From an uncultured Rivularia sp. (lineage in GTDB: Bacteria > Cyanobacteriota > Cyanobacteriia > Cyanobacteriales > Nostocaceae), in assembly GCA_963665115.1 (NCBI GenBank), contig OY762007.1:4832001-4896000 (forward strand): 64,000 bases of DNA, read 5' to 3'. A program made the translations under genes and the position numbers. The notes beneath the pieces were generated by a model. That model was not told the origin of the DNA. It ran no database searches and saw only the letters and a program-made list of their open reading frames with translations. Below, one piece after another: positions 41,587 to 48,855 of the stretch; within the stretch, counting starts at the first letter, position 1; each line of letters starts with the position of its first letter.

Positions 41587-42528
41587 TCAACTAACAACCA
41601 ACGACAAAAACATACATTCCCAAACTAAACGCGGTTGCGCGTAAGAAAGTAAAGCTTTACGGGTTTTTTCAAGCTGTTGAATAATACTTGGTTGTCGGCT
41701 ATTTTGCCAATATGACTGTTGTAAATAATCAACTAACCATAACTGCGCTTCGTTATCTAATTCTTTATCAACTTGTTTCGCTAATTCCAATGCAGAGCGG
41801 TAACTTTTAGGTGCTTGAGTACAAAAGCGCAATAAATCAAGAGGAATATTTTGCATTTGTTCGTAAGCTTCAACCGCTTTTCCCGGACTTCCTGCTGCGA
41901 TACTTAAAACTGTAGGATGATTCAATATTTCGCTATGTCCCGATAATGCCAGTACTTGAGACATTGCGGCAGTATCTAAACAGTAAAAAGGAATTTTTTG
42001 ACACCGAGAAACCAATGTTGTCAAGATAGAATCGGGTGTTGGTGCAATCAAAATCAGCGTTGCTTTTCCCGGTTCTTCCAAGGTTTTGAGTAAAGCATTA
42101 GCAGCTGATTCTGCCATCGTTTCGGCTTGCTCCAACACTACTATATTTCTTGGCGCTTCTAAAGGTGGACGACTGAGAAATTCCGCTATTTGGCGAATTT
42201 GTTCTAAGCGAGTTATGGGGGGTGCTTTACGTTTTAACCCTTTTTCTGCGGCTTCTTCAGCACTGAATAATTTTCCTTGATGTAGATAAGTAGGCTGTAC
42301 CCAAAGTAAATCGGGATGATTCCTTTTTTCTATTTTGCTTTTAACAACAGTAATATCGCGATTATTTTGAGTAAACAGTAATTCCGAGAAGCATTTTGCA
42401 GTTAAACTTCGTCCGATTCCAGGAGAACCCACAAACAAATATGCTGGTGCAATTCTGTCTTTTGCAACAGCTTGTTTTAATAATTCTACAGCTTGGCTTT
42501 GTCCTATAAGCGGTGCGAAGGAATCCAT
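41587..42528 (-). CDS. holB: DNA polymerase III delta' subunit
   Basis: APAYLF.G, HPDLLW, ANALLKTLEEP and T..SRC motifs; downstream of tmk. Confidence 0.94.
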   Translation of the reverse strand: MDSFAPLIGQSQAVELLKQAVAKDRIAPAYLFVGSPGIGRSLTAKCFSELLFTQNNRDITVVKSKIEKRNHPDLLWVQPTYLHQGKLFSAEEAAEKGLKRKAPPITRLEQIRQIAEFLSRPPLEAPRNIVVLEQAETMAESAANALLKTLEEPGKATLILIAPTPDSILTTLVSRCQKIPFYCLDTAAMSQVLALSGHSEILNHPTVLSIAAGSPGKAVEAYEQMQNIPLDLLRFCTQAPKSYRSALELAKQVDKELDNEAQLWLVDYLQQSYWQNSRQPSIIQQLEKTRKALLSYAQPRLVWECMFLSLVVS

Positions 42529-42563
42529 TTTCAGTTATCGCCATATATTCTACTAATGCCCAA

Positions 42564-43214
42564 TTAGCAATTACCAATCCCCCATTCTTCCAATTTAAAA
42601 GTTAATATTTGCTGAATTTGCTTTTGTACTTCTTCTTTACTCAAACCAGCTTCTATTCTAAAATTTCGTTCTGGAGATAAAGCTGCTTGTTCCTTATATC
42701 CTTTTTGGACGCGACGATGAAATTCAATTTTTTCTTGCTCGATTCTATCTGCTTTTTCGCCGGTTTTTCGCTTGCGTGCCATTCCTTGCTCAACGTCTAA
42801 GTCTAACCACAAAGTTAAGTCACTTTTCAATCCCGATGTTGCTATTAAGTTAAGTTGGTCGATTAAATTCATGTCTAAATTACGACCGTAACCTTGATAG
42901 GCTATCGTCGAATCAATATAGCGATCGCACAATATAATTTTTCCCGCTTCCAGATTCGGAAGCAGTTCTTGTTCTACGTGTTGAGAGCGATCGGCGGCGT
43001 ACAATAATAGTTCTGTGGTGGCACTTATTGCTTGATTTTGATTACTTTCCAACAACAAAGAGCGAAGATGCAATCCTAATTGAGTTCCCCCCGGTTCGCG
43101 AGTTGTTACCACGGCTATACTTAAACTTTGCATCCATTCATAACAAAGCTGCATTTGCGTAGTCTTACCGCAACCTTCTACCCCTTCAAAGACAATTAGT
43201 TTACCTTTCATCAC
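42564..43214 (-). CDS. tmk: Thymidylate kinase
   Basis: FEGVEGCGKTTQ, TREPGG and CDRY..S..AYQG motifs. Confidence 0.96.
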   Translation of the reverse strand: MMKGKLIVFEGVEGCGKTTQMQLCYEWMQSLSIAVVTTREPGGTQLGLHLRSLLLESNQNQAISATTELLLYAADRSQHVEQELLPNLEAGKIILCDRYIDSTIAYQGYGRNLDMNLIDQLNLIATSGLKSDLTLWLDLDVEQGMARKRKTGEKADRIEQEKIEFHRRVQKGYKEQAALSPERNFRIEAGLSKEEVQKQIQQILTFKLEEWGIGNC

Positions 43215-43261
43215 GTTAAAGTCTGCTGCCAGTAACTCTTTAACATACCACCTTTACCTTA

Positions 43262-43950
43262 CTAATACTCCACCACATTAATTTTGCGGGGTTCTAAGCA
43301 GTCGATTAAAAAAAAACCGCAGAGGGCGCAGAGTACGCTAAGGAAGAGGAAAGAGAGAATTAATTCGAGAGGAATAAAATTGATGTTATCTAGCAAAACT
43401 TATATGGTGGAGTACTAATAATCCTTTTCATTAATTTTAACGGGTTGTAGAGACGTTATACATAACGTCTCCCGAAGGTTACGGGAAAAACGAACCCTTC
43501 AGAATTTATGCAATCAACTACTAATATTCCACCACATTAGTTTTGCGGGGTACGTAGTTGCGCTTCAGCGCCTCATATTCCTGTATCCGGAGGCGCTGAA
43601 GCGCAACTACGAACAATTATTAACCCCGCAAAATTAATGTGGTTGGGTACTAATAGTCCTTTGCATTAATTCTGAGGGGTACGTTTTCGACCTAACGTCG
43701 GGAGACGTAGCACTGCTACGTCTCTACAACCCATTAAAACAAATGAAAAGGACTACTAATAGTCCTTTTCATAAATTCTGAGGGGTACGTTTTCGACCTA
43801 ACGTCGGGAGACGTAGCACTGCTACGTCTCTACAACCCATTAAAACAAATGAAAAGGACTACTAATACTTCACCACATTAATTTTGATGGGTATCCGGGA
43901 GTGCAAGCCGGAAAGCTCGCTGGTTGTCACGAACGAGACGCTCCCACTAT
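43262..43950. mobile_element. Tandem array of six TIR-bounded MITE-like cassettes separated by CTAA
   Basis: Units 43266-43414, 43419-43520, 43525-43649, 43654-43755, 43760-43861 and a truncated unit from 43866; CTAA precedes every unit. Confidence 0.88.
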
Positions 43951-44057
43951 GAGAAATCAAAGAAAGTAAATAGCAAACATCTCGAAAAAAAGTAAAAATC
44001 AAAACAGTTTTTAGCTTTTACCTTTCAACTTTCACAATCTCTCTTTCTCTTTCTAGC

Positions 44058-44381
44058 TCAGAGATACTGTGTTAAAGTTTTAATTAAGGTTGTTTTTGGT
44101 ACTGCACCCACAACCGTATCGACTTGCCGACCGCCTTTAAATACTATCAGCGTTGGAATGCTGCGAATACCATAGTGACTAGCAACAGTGGGATTTTGGT
44201 CTGTGTTGAGTTTCACCACTTTAACTTGTCCTTCGTATTCCCCAGCAACTTCATCTACTACCGGAGCAACCATTCGACAAGGACCGCACCAAGGTGCCCA
44301 AAAGTCTACCAGTACAGGAACTTGGCTTTCGAGGACTTCTTGCTTAAAAGTGGCTTCTGTCACATTCGTAATGGATGACAT
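44058..44381 (-). CDS. trxA: Thioredoxin (TrxA2 / m-type-like)
   Basis: WCGPC active site; divergent from a RexT-like regulator. Confidence 0.96.
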
Positions 44382-44411
44382 ACTTGTCCTCCTATTAATA
44401 TTATTTCTATA

Positions 44412-44428
44412 ATTCGAGAAAATCGAAT
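44412..44428. promoter_or_regulatory. Palindrome ATTCGA-N5-TCGAAT, putative operator of the ArsR/RexT-like regulator
   Basis: Perfect inverted repeat in the 84-bp divergent intergenic region, next to a TATAAT. Confidence 0.6.
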
Positions 44429-44465
44429 AATTAAAATATAGACCTTTTTAAGACAACCTGCAACA

Positions 44466-44804
44466 ATGAGATTTCTTTATCATCCAGAGCAAAAAAATAT
44501 ATCTTTAGCGGGAGTGCTTTATGCGTTAGGGGACCCTGTTAGATTAGAGATTGTCCGACAGTTAGCCACGAAAAAAGAGCAATGCTGTGGGGACTTCGAT
44601 TTTGCGATCGCGAAGTCAACAATGTCTAATCACTTCAAAATATTGCGAGAGTCAGGGTTAGTATTAACTAGAAAAGAAGGCACCCAGCACATAAACACTC
44701 TGCGAATTGAAGATTTAGAAGAATTATTTCCAGGGCTATTGGAAGCCATATTGAATTCCGCTCAACCATTCATCATCCCTCAGAAAGAAGCTGTTATCAG
44801 TTAA
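44466..44804 (+). CDS. rexT: ArsR/SmtB family redox-sensing regulator
   Basis: ALGDPVRLEIV, EQCC, KSTMSNHFKILRESG; divergent arrangement with trxA, as known for RexT in Anabaena. Confidence 0.8.
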   Translation: MRFLYHPEQKNISLAGVLYALGDPVRLEIVRQLATKKEQCCGDFDFAIAKSTMSNHFKILRESGLVLTRKEGTQHINTLRIEDLEELFPGLLEAILNSAQPFIIPQKEAVIS

Positions 44805-44844
44805 CAGTGGGCAGTAAACAGTGGACAGTTATCAATCATTATTA

Positions 44845-44938
44845 ACTCCCTACTTTCTACTCCCTACTTTCTACTCCCTACTTTCTACTCCCTACTTTCT
44901 ACTCCCTACTTTCTACTCCCTACTTTCTACTCCCTACT
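44845..44938. repeat. 14-bp tandem repeat ACTCCCTACTTTCT, about 6.5 copies
   Basis: Directly visible. Confidence 0.92.
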
Positions 44939-45764
44939 TGCTACTCTTAACCGTGTTCGTAAAGTCGCTCAATCCTAATTTTGCATTGTTGAAGCTAGCA
45001 TTGGTGAGATCGGAGCCTTGGAATGATGTTACTGAATAAGTAGTAATTTCTTTAATGGCGTAGCGAAGGGAAATTAGAGTGAATCCAATATAAGTTAATG
45101 ATAAAAAGCTTAAACTAAATCCCCATATAAGATTTTGAGTACTTAGAAAAGCAATTGCTCTTGTTCCTGCTAAAAAACCAAATGCATAGCTGTAAATTGT
45201 TCCTGCTATAGATAAAGTAATTGGGATAAACCCTTTTTTAAAATAAAAGCTGCTAATTGCCATTATTAATGCTGCAATAACAGCAGAGGCAATTGCTACT
45301 TGTGGATTTTTTCCACCAGCAGCGGTTCCACCATAAAAGAATCCTAAAATAGATCCTGAAGTTGCACCGGAAATAATTGTAGTAATACGTTTAAAAATAG
45401 ATTTTCTTTCAGTTAAACTCATTGCAGCAGAGGCTATACCGGCAATAGCTAAGCTAATAGATAAAGCAATAGCATATACCCAAACTGGACTTTCAGGAGT
45501 TCTTTCTATGACTCCAAATGCCATTTTACTAACCGCATGAAAGACTATGATAGTTGTTATAAAAGTGATAGCTATTAAAGATAAAAATATTTTAGTTGTT
45601 TGACCTGCTTTAATATGATCAAAATTAGCTCCTCGCAATAAACTATTACTAAAATCGCAACCGCGAACATCGGATGCATTGAAGTTAGCACCATTAAGAT
45701 TTTGACCTTTGAAAGAACGCTTTCTTAAATCTTGATTGCTAAAATTAAAATTTTCAGAGTTCAT
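44934..45764 (-). CDS. Pentapeptide-repeat membrane protein
   Basis: Pentapeptide repeats at both termini around about 6 TM segments. Confidence 0.85.
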   Translation of the reverse strand: MNSENFNFSNQDLRKRSFKGQNLNGANFNASDVRGCDFSNSLLRGANFDHIKAGQTTKIFLSLIAITFITTIIVFHAVSKMAFGVIERTPESPVWVYAIALSISLAIAGIASAAMSLTERKSIFKRITTIISGATSGSILGFFYGGTAAGGKNPQVAIASAVIAALIMAISSFYFKKGFIPITLSIAGTIYSYAFGFLAGTRAIAFLSTQNLIWGFSLSFLSLTYIGFTLISLRYAIKEITTYSVTSFQGSDLTNASFNNAKLGLSDFTNTVKSSK

Positions 45765-46910: not shown

Positions 46911-47516
46911 ATGATTCAAGAGCGCGACTATACATTAATTATTGATAAAAGCGGTAGTATGTCAACTCCAGATCAAGCTGGTGGTAAAAGTCGATGGGAG
47001 ATAATGCAAGAATCTACCCTTGCTTTGGCTAGAAAGTGCGAGCAGTTCGATCCAGACGGGATGACTGTTTACCTGTTTTCCGGTAGATTTAAGCGTTTTG
47101 AGGATGTGACTTCAGATAAAGTAGCGCAAATATTCATGGAAAACGATCCAGCCGGTACTACCGATTTAGCGGGTGTTCTCAAAGATGCTACCGATGATTA
47201 CTTCAAGCGTAAAGCAGCAAACCAAACTAAGCCCAACGGCGAAACGATTTTAGTTGTTACAGATGGCGAACCTGACGATAGAAAAGCAGTTTTTGAGGTA
47301 ATTGTCAATGCTTCCCGTCAGATGGAGAAAGATGAAGAATTAGGAATCTCTATCGTTCAAGTTGGTAGTGATGCTCAAGCAACAAAATTTCTTAAAGCTT
47401 TAGACGATCAAATGGAATCGATTGGCGCAAAATTTGATATTTGCGACACTGTAACTTTCGATGATATGGAAGATATGAGTCTTGCAGAGATATTAACTAA
47501 TGCAATTACTGATTAG
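46911..47516 (+). CDS. vWA domain protein, copy 1
   Basis: MIDAS motif DKSGS, GTT and VVTDG. Confidence 0.92.
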   Translation: MIQERDYTLIIDKSGSMSTPDQAGGKSRWEIMQESTLALARKCEQFDPDGMTVYLFSGRFKRFEDVTSDKVAQIFMENDPAGTTDLAGVLKDATDDYFKRKAANQTKPNGETILVVTDGEPDDRKAVFEVIVNASRQMEKDEELGISIVQVGSDAQATKFLKALDDQMESIGAKFDICDTVTFDDMEDMSLAEILTNAITD

Positions 47517-47574
47517 GTAATTGGTAATTGGTGATAGTAATAAATAGATCAATTAGCTTACAGGAAAATGAATT

Positions 47575-48180
47575 ATGTTAGAAAATCGCGACTATACCTT
47601 AATTATTGATAAAAGCGGTAGTATGTCAACTCCCGATCAAGCAAGTGGTAAAAGTAGATGGGAAGTAATGCAAGAATCTACTCTTGCTTTGGCTAGAAAA
47701 TGCGAAAAATTAGATCCTGATGGGATGACGGTTTATCTATTTTCCGGTAAATTTAAGCGTTTTGACGATGTGACTTCCGATAAAGTCGCGCAAATATTTA
47801 TGGAAAACGATCCTGCGGGTACGACTAATTTAGCGGGAGTTCTCAAAGATGCTACAGATAATTATTTTAAGCGTAAAGCAGCAGGTCAAACCAAAGCCAA
47901 CGGGGAAACAATTATAGTTGTAACTGATGGTGAACCCGACAATAGGAAAGCAGTTTTTGAAGTAATTGTTAATGCTTCCCAGCAGATGGAAAAAGATGAA
48001 GAATTAGGAATCTCTCTTGTTCAAGTTGGTAGGGATGCTCAAGCAATGAAGTTTCTTAAAGCTTTAGACGATCAAATGGAATCAATTGGTGCAAAGTTTG
48101 ATATTTGCGACACCATAACTTTTGATGATATGGAAGATATGAGTCTTACAGAGATATTAACTAATGCAATTACTGATTAA
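47575..48180 (+). CDS. vWA domain protein, copy 2
   Basis: Same motifs and length; near-duplicate of copy 1. Confidence 0.92.
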   Translation: MLENRDYTLIIDKSGSMSTPDQASGKSRWEVMQESTLALARKCEKLDPDGMTVYLFSGKFKRFDDVTSDKVAQIFMENDPAGTTNLAGVLKDATDNYFKRKAAGQTKANGETIIVVTDGEPDNRKAVFEVIVNASQQMEKDEELGISLVQVGRDAQAMKFLKALDDQMESIGAKFDICDTITFDDMEDMSLTEILTNAITD

Positions 48181-48249
48181 TTAGGGAATAGAGAACAGGG
48201 AACAGGGAAAAGTGAATACTAATAAATAAATTAAGAGGAGAATTGATCG

Positions 48250-48855
48250 ATGTTAGAAAATCGTGATTACACTTTAATTATTGATAAAAGTGGTAGCATG
48301 GCAACCCCCGACCAAAAAGGTGGTAGAACTAGATGGGTAGCAGCAGAGGAATCAACCTTTGCTTTAGCGAGTAAATGCGAACAGTTCGATCCAGATGGTA
48401 TTACCATTTATACATTTTCTGGGCGATTTAAAAGATATGAAAATGTTACATCCAAGAAAGTGATGCAGATTTTTCAGGAAAACGATCCCTCCGGAACTAC
48501 CGATTTAGCTTCAGTATTAAAACACGCTACAGATAATTATTTTCAACGCAAAGCTGCGGGTGAAACAAAGGAAAATGGTGAGACAATCTTAGTAATTACC
48601 GATGGCGAACCCGATGACAGAAAAGCGGTGATGAAAGTGATTATTGAAACTTCTCGTCGTATGGATAAAGATGAGGAATTAGCAATTTCCTTTATTCAAG
48701 TTGGAACCGATCCTCATGCAACTCGCTTTCTCAAAGTCTTGGATGACGAAATGCAAAGTGCAGGAGCTAAGTTTGATATCTGTGACACGATTACAATGGA
48801 TGATATGGAAGACTACAGTCTTTCAGAAGTATTGCTAAATGCAATTATTGATTAG
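48250..48855 (+). CDS. vWA domain protein, copy 3
   Basis: Same motifs and length but more diverged; AGAGGAG RBS. Confidence 0.92.
   Translation: MLENRDYTLIIDKSGSMATPDQKGGRTRWVAAEESTFALASKCEQFDPDGITIYTFSGRFKRYENVTSKKVMQIFQENDPSGTTDLASVLKHATDNYFQRKAAGETKENGETILVITDGEPDDRKAVMKVIIETSRRMDKDEELAISFIQVGTDPHATRFLKVLDDEMQSAGAKFDICDTITMDDMEDYSLSEVLLNAIID

Follow-up and report, generated by a model that had tools for sequence, protein, structure and literature searches.

How did the intergenic region between tmk and trxA come to hold a row of short inverted-repeat units, each joined to the next by the same four bases, CTAA? In the window, which is the whole stretch of 64,000 nucleotides analyzed here, this interval contained a CTAA-joined array of five complete elements of 102-149 bp and one half element. 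We are confident that the array is a stack of IS630-type MITEs built by repeated insertion, and our main reading (probability of approximately 0.6) is that the MITEs were inserted one at a time by an IS630-type transposase that copied its NTAN target and was drawn to resident ends. Unprefixed coordinates refer to the window, and C1:n refers to positions in the genome bearing it (G000; 8.69 Mb, 37.9% GC), which also contained an abundant octamer (2618 copies) that we take to be the cyanobacterial HIP1.

The array between tmk and trxA

A direct search located the junction sequence TACTAATA at exactly six window sites (Table 1), and the CTAA positions, unit lengths, and inversion of unit 2 all agreed with an earlier interpretation of this DNA made without database searches (referred to as the sequence-only reading); the orientation of CTAA was unchanged although unit 2 ran in the opposite direction to units 4 and 5. 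On the other hand, the claim of six cassettes held for units 1-5, which were complete, but not for unit 6, which only had its left end: no partner end was found in G000, and the right end was also absent from G001, G003, and G007. Unit 6 was the unit common to all four genomes with an array at this place.

Table 1. Features of the tmk-trxA interval (window coordinates)
Feature	Position	Strand	Remarks
tmk (dTMP kinase), downstream neighbor	42564..43214	-	TIGR00041, 189.9 bits; start 48 bp from the stack
Outer copy of the CTAA target repeat	43262..43265	+	Precedes the first unit in G001, G003, and G007 also
Unit 1, 149-bp MITE, cargo family 5	43266..43414	+	A-type ends (25/26 and 20/26 to IS ends)
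Junction CTAA	43415..43418	+	
Unit 2, 102-bp MITE, cargo family 1 (GTAGAGACG REP)	43419..43520	+	B/C-type ends; inverted relative to units 4 and 5
Junction CTAA	43521..43524	+	
Unit 3, 125-bp MITE, cargo family 3	43525..43649	+	A-type ends; inverted REP doublet (REPIN-like)
Junction CTAA	43650..43653	+	
Unit 4, 102-bp MITE, cargo family 1	43654..43755	+	B-type ends; identical copy at C1:4131604 with CTAG/CTAG flanks
Junction CTAA	43756..43759	+	Loop of a 13-bp hairpin from the abutting ends of units 4 and 5; terminator-like on the minus strand
Unit 5, 102-bp MITE, cargo family 1	43760..43861	+	99% identical to copies elsewhere vs 98% to unit 4
Junction CTAA	43862..43865	+	
Unit 6, half element with family-2 REP doublet	43866..43951	+	A-type left end; no right end
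trxA (thioredoxin), upstream neighbor	44058..44381	-	TIGR01068, 136.1 bits

The cargo of unit 1 was a purine-rich ACCGCAGAG direct repeat and not a GTAG REP hairpin. Copies 98% identical to unit 2 occurred elsewhere, flanked by CTAC or CTAG, and the doublet arms of unit 3 were 96% complementary across 25 nt (fold z of the unit: -14). Contigs from sequencing runs X1 and X2, which may be from the source sample, spanned four junctions with zero differences. The window ORF list contained no ORF of at least 80 amino acids within the array, a promoter scan of the array was at background (1 vs 1.9), and an Rfam scan of 42000-45000 gave two weak miRNA-hairpin matches far under the gathering score, with none at the gathering level among the matches listed. 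Three terminator-like hairpins were found at 43317-43772 on the minus strand, i.e., the trxA-tmk strand (shuffles: 0.7 +/- 0.9), and one of them was the unit 4/5 junction; such hairpins could affect tmk expression. Elsewhere in the window, three tandem paralogs of 201 amino acids with a DKSGSM motif (46911-48855) are presumably vWA-like.

Ends, transposases, and cargo

G000 was searched with a profile of the 26-bp ends (cut-off score of at least 16), using both strands of the reversed genome as the control. Since 418 ends were detected at 155 loci, vs 1 and 2 per strand in the reversed genome, the array ends are not chance matches. The 144 complete MITEs delimited by this genome-wide search agreed with the proposal that the shells are non-autonomous, multicopy elements. 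Another end adjoined 198 of the 418, and the gap at these junctions was 4 bases in 77, 1 base in 11, 7 bases in 8, and 2, 3, and 6 bases in one each. At least one junction was present in 49 of the 155 loci, and the window locus was one of four with five junctions. Two pairs of gap-1 and gap-7 junctions each bracketed one unit, which is expected from a 4-bp repeat at an overlapping NTAN three bases over; the remaining gap-1 and gap-7 junctions may have been caused by slippage. At the 77 gap-4 junctions, abutting ends were less alike than shuffled pairs (7.97 vs 8.53 of 13) and end pairs of the same subtype were rare, as if perfect palindromes were purged from end-to-end junctions. At both C1:392033 and C1:3927107, a 124-bp MITE occupied the loop of a REP hairpin of the GTAGAGACG type; this loop is one base long, and that base was repeated on both sides of the MITE, unlike the NTAN rule.

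The same 26-bp ends bounded four long elements, of which three were A-type, with a length of 1307-1308 bp, and one was B-type, with a length of 1253 bp; this size range (1253-1308 bp) is within that of the IS630 family (1.0-1.4 kb). An intact A-type transposase was located at C1:2371372-2372679. They encoded an IS630 transposase (NF033545: 142.4 and 110.3 bits on the second ORFs, with a cut-off of 100), which also matched PF13358 and PF13565 (HTH and DDE type), was split into two ORFs, the overlap of which was at an A8C run, and contained the residues D53, D136, and E178 (spacing D-D41-E). Array ends were identical to IS ends at 20-25 of 26 positions. The relationship to IS630 that had been suggested for the family B ends was thus borne out by full-length elements with the same ends, and likewise applied to family A. 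All four full elements were located in stacks, and 7 of their 8 ends adjoined another end; two of them were 99.9% identical, with GTAG/GTAG and CTAG/CTAG flanks, respectively. The second ORF of the sole B-type full element (C1:1997731-1998983) was frameshifted, and B shells would therefore depend on an A-type enzyme or a lost copy. In the mechanism that we propose, the A-type transposase, with its two ORFs fused by a -1 frameshift at A8C, would act in trans on shells of both types and move them by cut-and-paste. At C1:708419-709982, the MITEs on the two sides of a full IS were 99% identical and ran in the same direction, which would fit a duplication of the neighboring MITE upon insertion.

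None of the 144 MITE cargos matched three IS interiors (E 0.01), and a route to the interiors by deletion was not encountered in this comparison. The cargos formed 29 interior clusters (16 in A shells, 6 in B shells, and 11 in A/B hybrids, which comprised 19 elements), supporting the claim of shared shells with unrelated cargos and not a single shell-cargo pairing. The GTAG-REP motif was present in 123 of the 144 complete MITEs (20 of 29 clusters), vs 233 of 5000 intergenic windows. REP cargos had been assigned to the units of the array, and this was correct for units 2-6, which contained GTAG REPs with RAYT-like partners, but not for unit 1 (family 5), a non-REP repeat without the GTAG motif (fold z: -1.8); the REP doublet of unit 6 was degenerate (fold z: 0.04). 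Copies without an upstream end accounted for 81-93% per cargo motif: 444/536, 144/176, and 284/354 for the REP motifs of units 2-6, and 114/123 (free of ends) for the motif of unit 1. Free REPs as decayed MITEs were rejected because upstream end scores equaled the background.

Each GTAG cargo type flanked a RAYT-like gene in G000: six copies of the unit-3 motif at C1:2458262 (83.2 bits, cut-off of 80), two copies of the unit-6 motif at C1:4654846 (102.3 bits, same cut-off), and seven copies of the unit-2/4/5 motif at C1:379260, for which the score (50.6 bits) was below this cut-off. Such an arrangement would suit cassettes moved by RAYT tyrosine transposases via their REPs, with the IS630 ends as passengers; however, REP-free cargos (unit 1 and family 4) and REP-less full-length IS630 elements stacked identically, the boundaries were at IS ends and not at REPs, and we find this explanation hardly credible. 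The proposed two-tier system of transposase-TIR and REP held as a description of composition only. Candidate routes for the cargo are repair filler and recombination via REP homology, and the latter fits the 122 unpaired ends in G000, 84 of which opened into known cargo: during either process, the shells may have taken up REP DNA as filler, which they would subsequently have disseminated. In another genome (G013, C2:4169600-4172100), seven tandem 154-bp units, each consisting of one end and a GTAGGTTGGG REP doublet, resembled repeats beside RAYT genes.

Target repeat, growth of stacks, and a probable preference for resident ends

Of the ends in G000, NTAN adjoined 173 of the 220 that were free and 184 of the 198 that were joined. 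Among 148 paired elements, 122 had NTAN on both sides and 26 lacked it on one side. The same 4-mer was present on both sides in 78 of the 122, 44 of these being non-palindromic (permutation mean of 27.8 and maximum of 45), and with one element per locus the values were 33 of 63 and 17 (14.2 and 3.4 expected). Consecutive junctions of a stack shared their 4-mer in 27 of 31 cases (expected: 0.22). Non-palindromic 4-bp repeats were found at CTAA, CTAC, and ATAG sites, and another genus provided an ATAG/ATAG repeat. In five pairs of identical elements, the 4-mer differed within each pair and was matched on both flanks in 5/5; therefore, the four bases belong to the target, as the sequence-only reading had deduced from CTAA being kept by the inverted unit 2. 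Five stacks or solo elements were included in a search for empty sites, one having no ortholog and two having flanks too rearranged to read; G007 possessed a single CTAC where G000 held three units and four CTAC. The 44 non-palindromic 4-bp repeats depart from the TA-only duplication by which IS630 is defined, and we class these elements as a variant of the IS630 type and not among its canonical members.

Could the ends instead be 27 bp long, with a variable last base and an ordinary TA duplication, and the 4-bp repeat a by-product of donor bases or later conversion? Twenty-four of the 122 elements read NTAG..CTAN, the pattern of a plain TA duplication with a terminal G/C, a further 20 agreed with neither rule, and the 17 neighbor-free, NTAN-flanked elements in G000 included 8 of this type, 2 CTAG/CTAG, and only 1 non-palindromic 4-bp repeat. 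Among distant relatives (protein identity of 53-62%; 50 of 80 with definable ends), 37 of the 50 were CTAG/CTAG, 10 were NTAG..CTAN (9 of which adjoined another repeat), 3 were other, and none had a non-palindromic 4-bp repeat. ISY100 duplicates TA in vitro (PMC2170065). However, identical elements changed both terminal bases to each target in all five pairs, the inverted unit 2 retained CTAA, and permutation tests keeping donor bases together were exceeded, making this explanation improbable. The 24 NTAG..CTAN elements were mostly older or had unique cargo (median nearest-copy identity of 0.855 vs 0.96), and their presence, together with the scarcity of 4-bp repeats among neighbor-free elements, suggests that two products may coexist. 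The 4-bp repeat is probably the main product, and we read it, with the chemistry inferred from these sequences, either as a shift in this lineage away from an ancestral TA duplication or as a second register. The ISY100 end as printed begins with its own TA (PMC2170065), which fixes the register of the ends; those described here, terminating in TA, would be joined to target positions with a spacing of 4 nt, displaced by one base from the ISY100 register, and this shift would replace the terminal base of the element by that of the target.

A two-mode idea, in which founders duplicate TA and only end-adjacent arrivals duplicate four bases, was suggested by G000, but was not reproduced in G013, in which 9 neighbor-free elements among 40 regions picked for good end matches included 6 CTAG/CTAG, 2 four-base repeats, and 0 NTAG..CTAN; the empty CTAC allele of G007 also opposed it. 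The difference between founder and end-adjacent flanks in G000 may be an effect of age.

In 15 other readable genomes, the tmk-trxA interval contained one unit in G001, two each in G003 and G007 (units 1 and 6), and none in the rest, vs six in G000, where units 2-5 lie between units 1 and 6. The array was not invariant, with array-free and 1-, 2-, and 6-unit alleles among relatives, and this variation in unit number supported the proposed repeated arrival at one site. A second CTAA stack contained 1, 4, 3, and 6 units, with different cassettes, in G001, G003, G007, and G000, respectively. Internal units of the stacks in G000 were the youngest (median nearest-copy identity of 0.98 vs 0.93 for edge and 0.86 for solo units). 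The closest copy was a stack mate for only 5 of 38 units, and units 4 and 5 had closer copies elsewhere, indicating that most growth came from units arriving separately, and some from duplication in place. As the main route, local tandem duplication together with unequal recombination of ends is largely refuted by these comparisons, by the presence of four cargo families and of both orientations in the window, and by the different cassettes gained by relatives at the same CTAA; we regard this route as very improbable in spite of the two 99% identical units flanking the full IS at C1:708419, the tandem half units in G013, repeated like units at another locus, and A/B hybrid shells (19/144).

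Unit 1 and its positional counterpart in G003 and G007 were only 77% identical, with flanks of 95-96% and a unit-6 cargo of 95% identity; relative to these genomes, it has been replaced or converted by another copy. The tmk-trxA interval of array-free relatives was 181-575 bp with varied other repeats, and is a general repeat sink. The 5' part of tmk was interrupted in G003, G006, and G015 by an insertion of ~2.3 kb, which, by eye, looks like a group II intron whose ORF ends in HNH. No transposition, circle, excised form, or sign of expression was observed in the contigs of the sequencing runs, in which the joints came from other copies; two RNA runs contained a fraction below 0.1 of the sequence words. 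The analogy with CRISPR or integron arrays drawn by the sequence-only reading extended to the architecture, but no further: growth was internal and not polar, the cargos were host repeats, and the site was 1 of 49 stacks. Junction duplication as in CRISPR was rejected because end types tracked the cargo and not the neighbor, and no CRISPR- or integron-like function is indicated.

Why do insertions fall beside existing ends? In G000, 62 of 65 young elements adjoined another end. Regeneration of TA-CTAA-TA had been offered as a sufficient reason for piling; a model learned from the sequence of founder flanks, which weighed intergenic sites, predicted end-adjacent shares of 4.7% and 6.3%, vs the observed 99/(99+155) = 39%, and this claim was not sustained. 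The same elements and 4-bp repeat may also stack without guidance by a protein when the terminal TA improves NTAN and insertions at other places are either infrequent, the DNA being inaccessible, or removed by selection; this explanation combines the mechanism of the sequence-only reading with survivorship. TA was enriched next to the 4-mer in founder flanks, albeit in only 29 of 103 (weight of 2.7, with little information otherwise), a null confined to 300 bp around ends yielded 65% adjacency, junction partners were not type-matched (AB: 58 vs 48.6 expected), and P elements provide a documented case of double insertion via site preference (PMC5932611). However, besides the low genome-wide share, 589 perfect intergenic 8-mers and 9252 half sites were available in G000, the regional null was exceeded (87%, 99/114), only 7 loci consisted solely of young complete units, and intergenic DNA tolerates hundreds of free REPs. 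We consider this explanation unlikely.

End-directed targeting, as an excess over the sequence-based expectation, is likely, and we give an even chance to its being guided by a protein; selection against new solitary insertions may also have contributed to the adjacency. A type-specific guide would predict like-with-like junctions, and the AB excess counts against it; self-like neighbors were found at 3 of 95 ends in distant relatives, the genomes of which may hold few copies. In our main reading, the transposase, or its DNA-binding half, on a resident end would favor the capture of an adjacent NTAN. More tentatively, and with slightly less than even odds, a Tc1/mariner-type enzyme with a 4-base stagger may home to its own ends, each insertion being the next landing pad, thereby building arrays and spreading REPs. 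Cruciform-loop targeting was rejected: naive 4-bp sites were not hairpin centers (3.15 vs 3.06 arm matches, n = 13), and the low likeness of abutting ends also opposed it.

Distribution and comparison with known systems

Every one of the 27 genomes in the genus, counting G000, contained the junction pattern, with 1-91 matches vs 0-1 in the control. The strict pattern gave no match in 300 other genomes of the order, but was too narrow because a looser pattern, among 401 genomes searched, picked up true junctions in 7 of 46 further members of the family, with counts of 1-4; seven other matches looked by eye like chance or coding sequence. In a Nostoc mirabile record, a REP-carrying MITE was joined through CTAG to a full element. 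At nine loci of Dehalococcoidia, related IS630 elements adjoined a different conserved repeat that started at the flanking C-TA, i.e., an end-to-end stacking of two element types.

In CTAG-targeting IS630 elements, the palindrome hides whether two or four bases are duplicated, whereas the stacks gave dozens of non-palindromic sites reading four, and point to an intact transposase suited to testing against the TA rule of the family. End-directed insertion is known from copy-out/paste-in families; in a mariner-type enzyme, it would, if true, be a simple route of gene avoidance, and would offer a landing pad that renews itself during serial DNA insertion. Together with a 4-base stagger, end homing, if true, would yield stable, heterogeneous, species-specific arrays at dozens of loci and a second REP vehicle. 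Ordered polymorphic stacks serve as lineage markers and as a record of REP capture by MITE shells; the evidence here did not indicate a host function.

CRISPR arrays and integrons also alternate repeat-like junctions with variable units and grow at one locus. The stacks differ from them in the lack of polarity, the host-repeat cargos, and the junction halves that arrive with the incoming unit, and no adjacent cas or integrase gene was recognized by eye among the listed window ORFs.

IS630 targets 5'-NTAN (PMC5678879). The elements described here share with ISY100/IS630 an HTH and DDE transposase, short inverted ends starting with TA, a central target TA, and presumed cut-and-paste, but differ in the two ORFs with a frameshift, the D41E spacing, and 4-base repeats beside existing ends, while ISY100 has a TA-only duplication and no reported stacking (PMC2170065). 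RUP and Correia are IS630-derived MITEs (PMC2817692), and Nezha and Muzha are cyanobacterial MITEs (PMC3184786, PMC10969869); like the units here, all four are non-coding, 100-150 bp in length, intergenic, and multicopy, with the ends of autonomous ISs and empty sites in relatives, and pneumococcal repeats are described as bunched (PMC2817692, PMC3184786, PMC10969869). In contrast to those MITEs, at least 29 unrelated interiors, none of which were IS-derived, shared the shells here, and the ordered stacks abutted at a fixed 4-bp spacer. YTAR-duplicating MITEs of the IS5 type are also described (PMC3189936).

IR-targeting by IS30/IS911 similarly involves insertion beside a resident end, fixed-spacer end-to-end junctions, and end conversion; however, those elements move by copy-out/paste-in, and their junction is a reactive intermediate driving rearrangements, whereas the elements here are cut-and-paste by descent and their junctions persist across species (PMC9333248). 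In tandem transposon dimers, the spacer is also the target duplication, and unequal exchange may expand them later; they are a minority product of site preference between like elements, unlike the adjacency rule of young copies and the mixed families here (PMC5932611). GTAG REPs, REPINs, and RAYTs resemble the cargo in the GTAG foot and hairpin, the doublets, the hundreds of free copies, and the flanked RAYT-like genes (PMC3733652, PMC3116915). A close precedent for a REP in a shell is found in Anabaena variabilis, in which GTAG-15 dimers are located within long palindromes starting with TATAG; in that paper, these palindromes are not tied to a transposase or to stacks, and their consensus differs from the ends here (PMC3733652).

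A search of the openly accessible literature yielded no report of a non-palindromic-site 4-bp repeat or of such stacks for IS630-type elements. Each ingredient has a precedent, namely, IS630 MITEs, double insertion, IR-targeting, and REP dimers in palindromes. The elements described here stand apart in three respects: their 4-mer matches the target, their young copies almost exclusively adjoin other ends, and their mixed arrays are polymorphic and occur across the genus.
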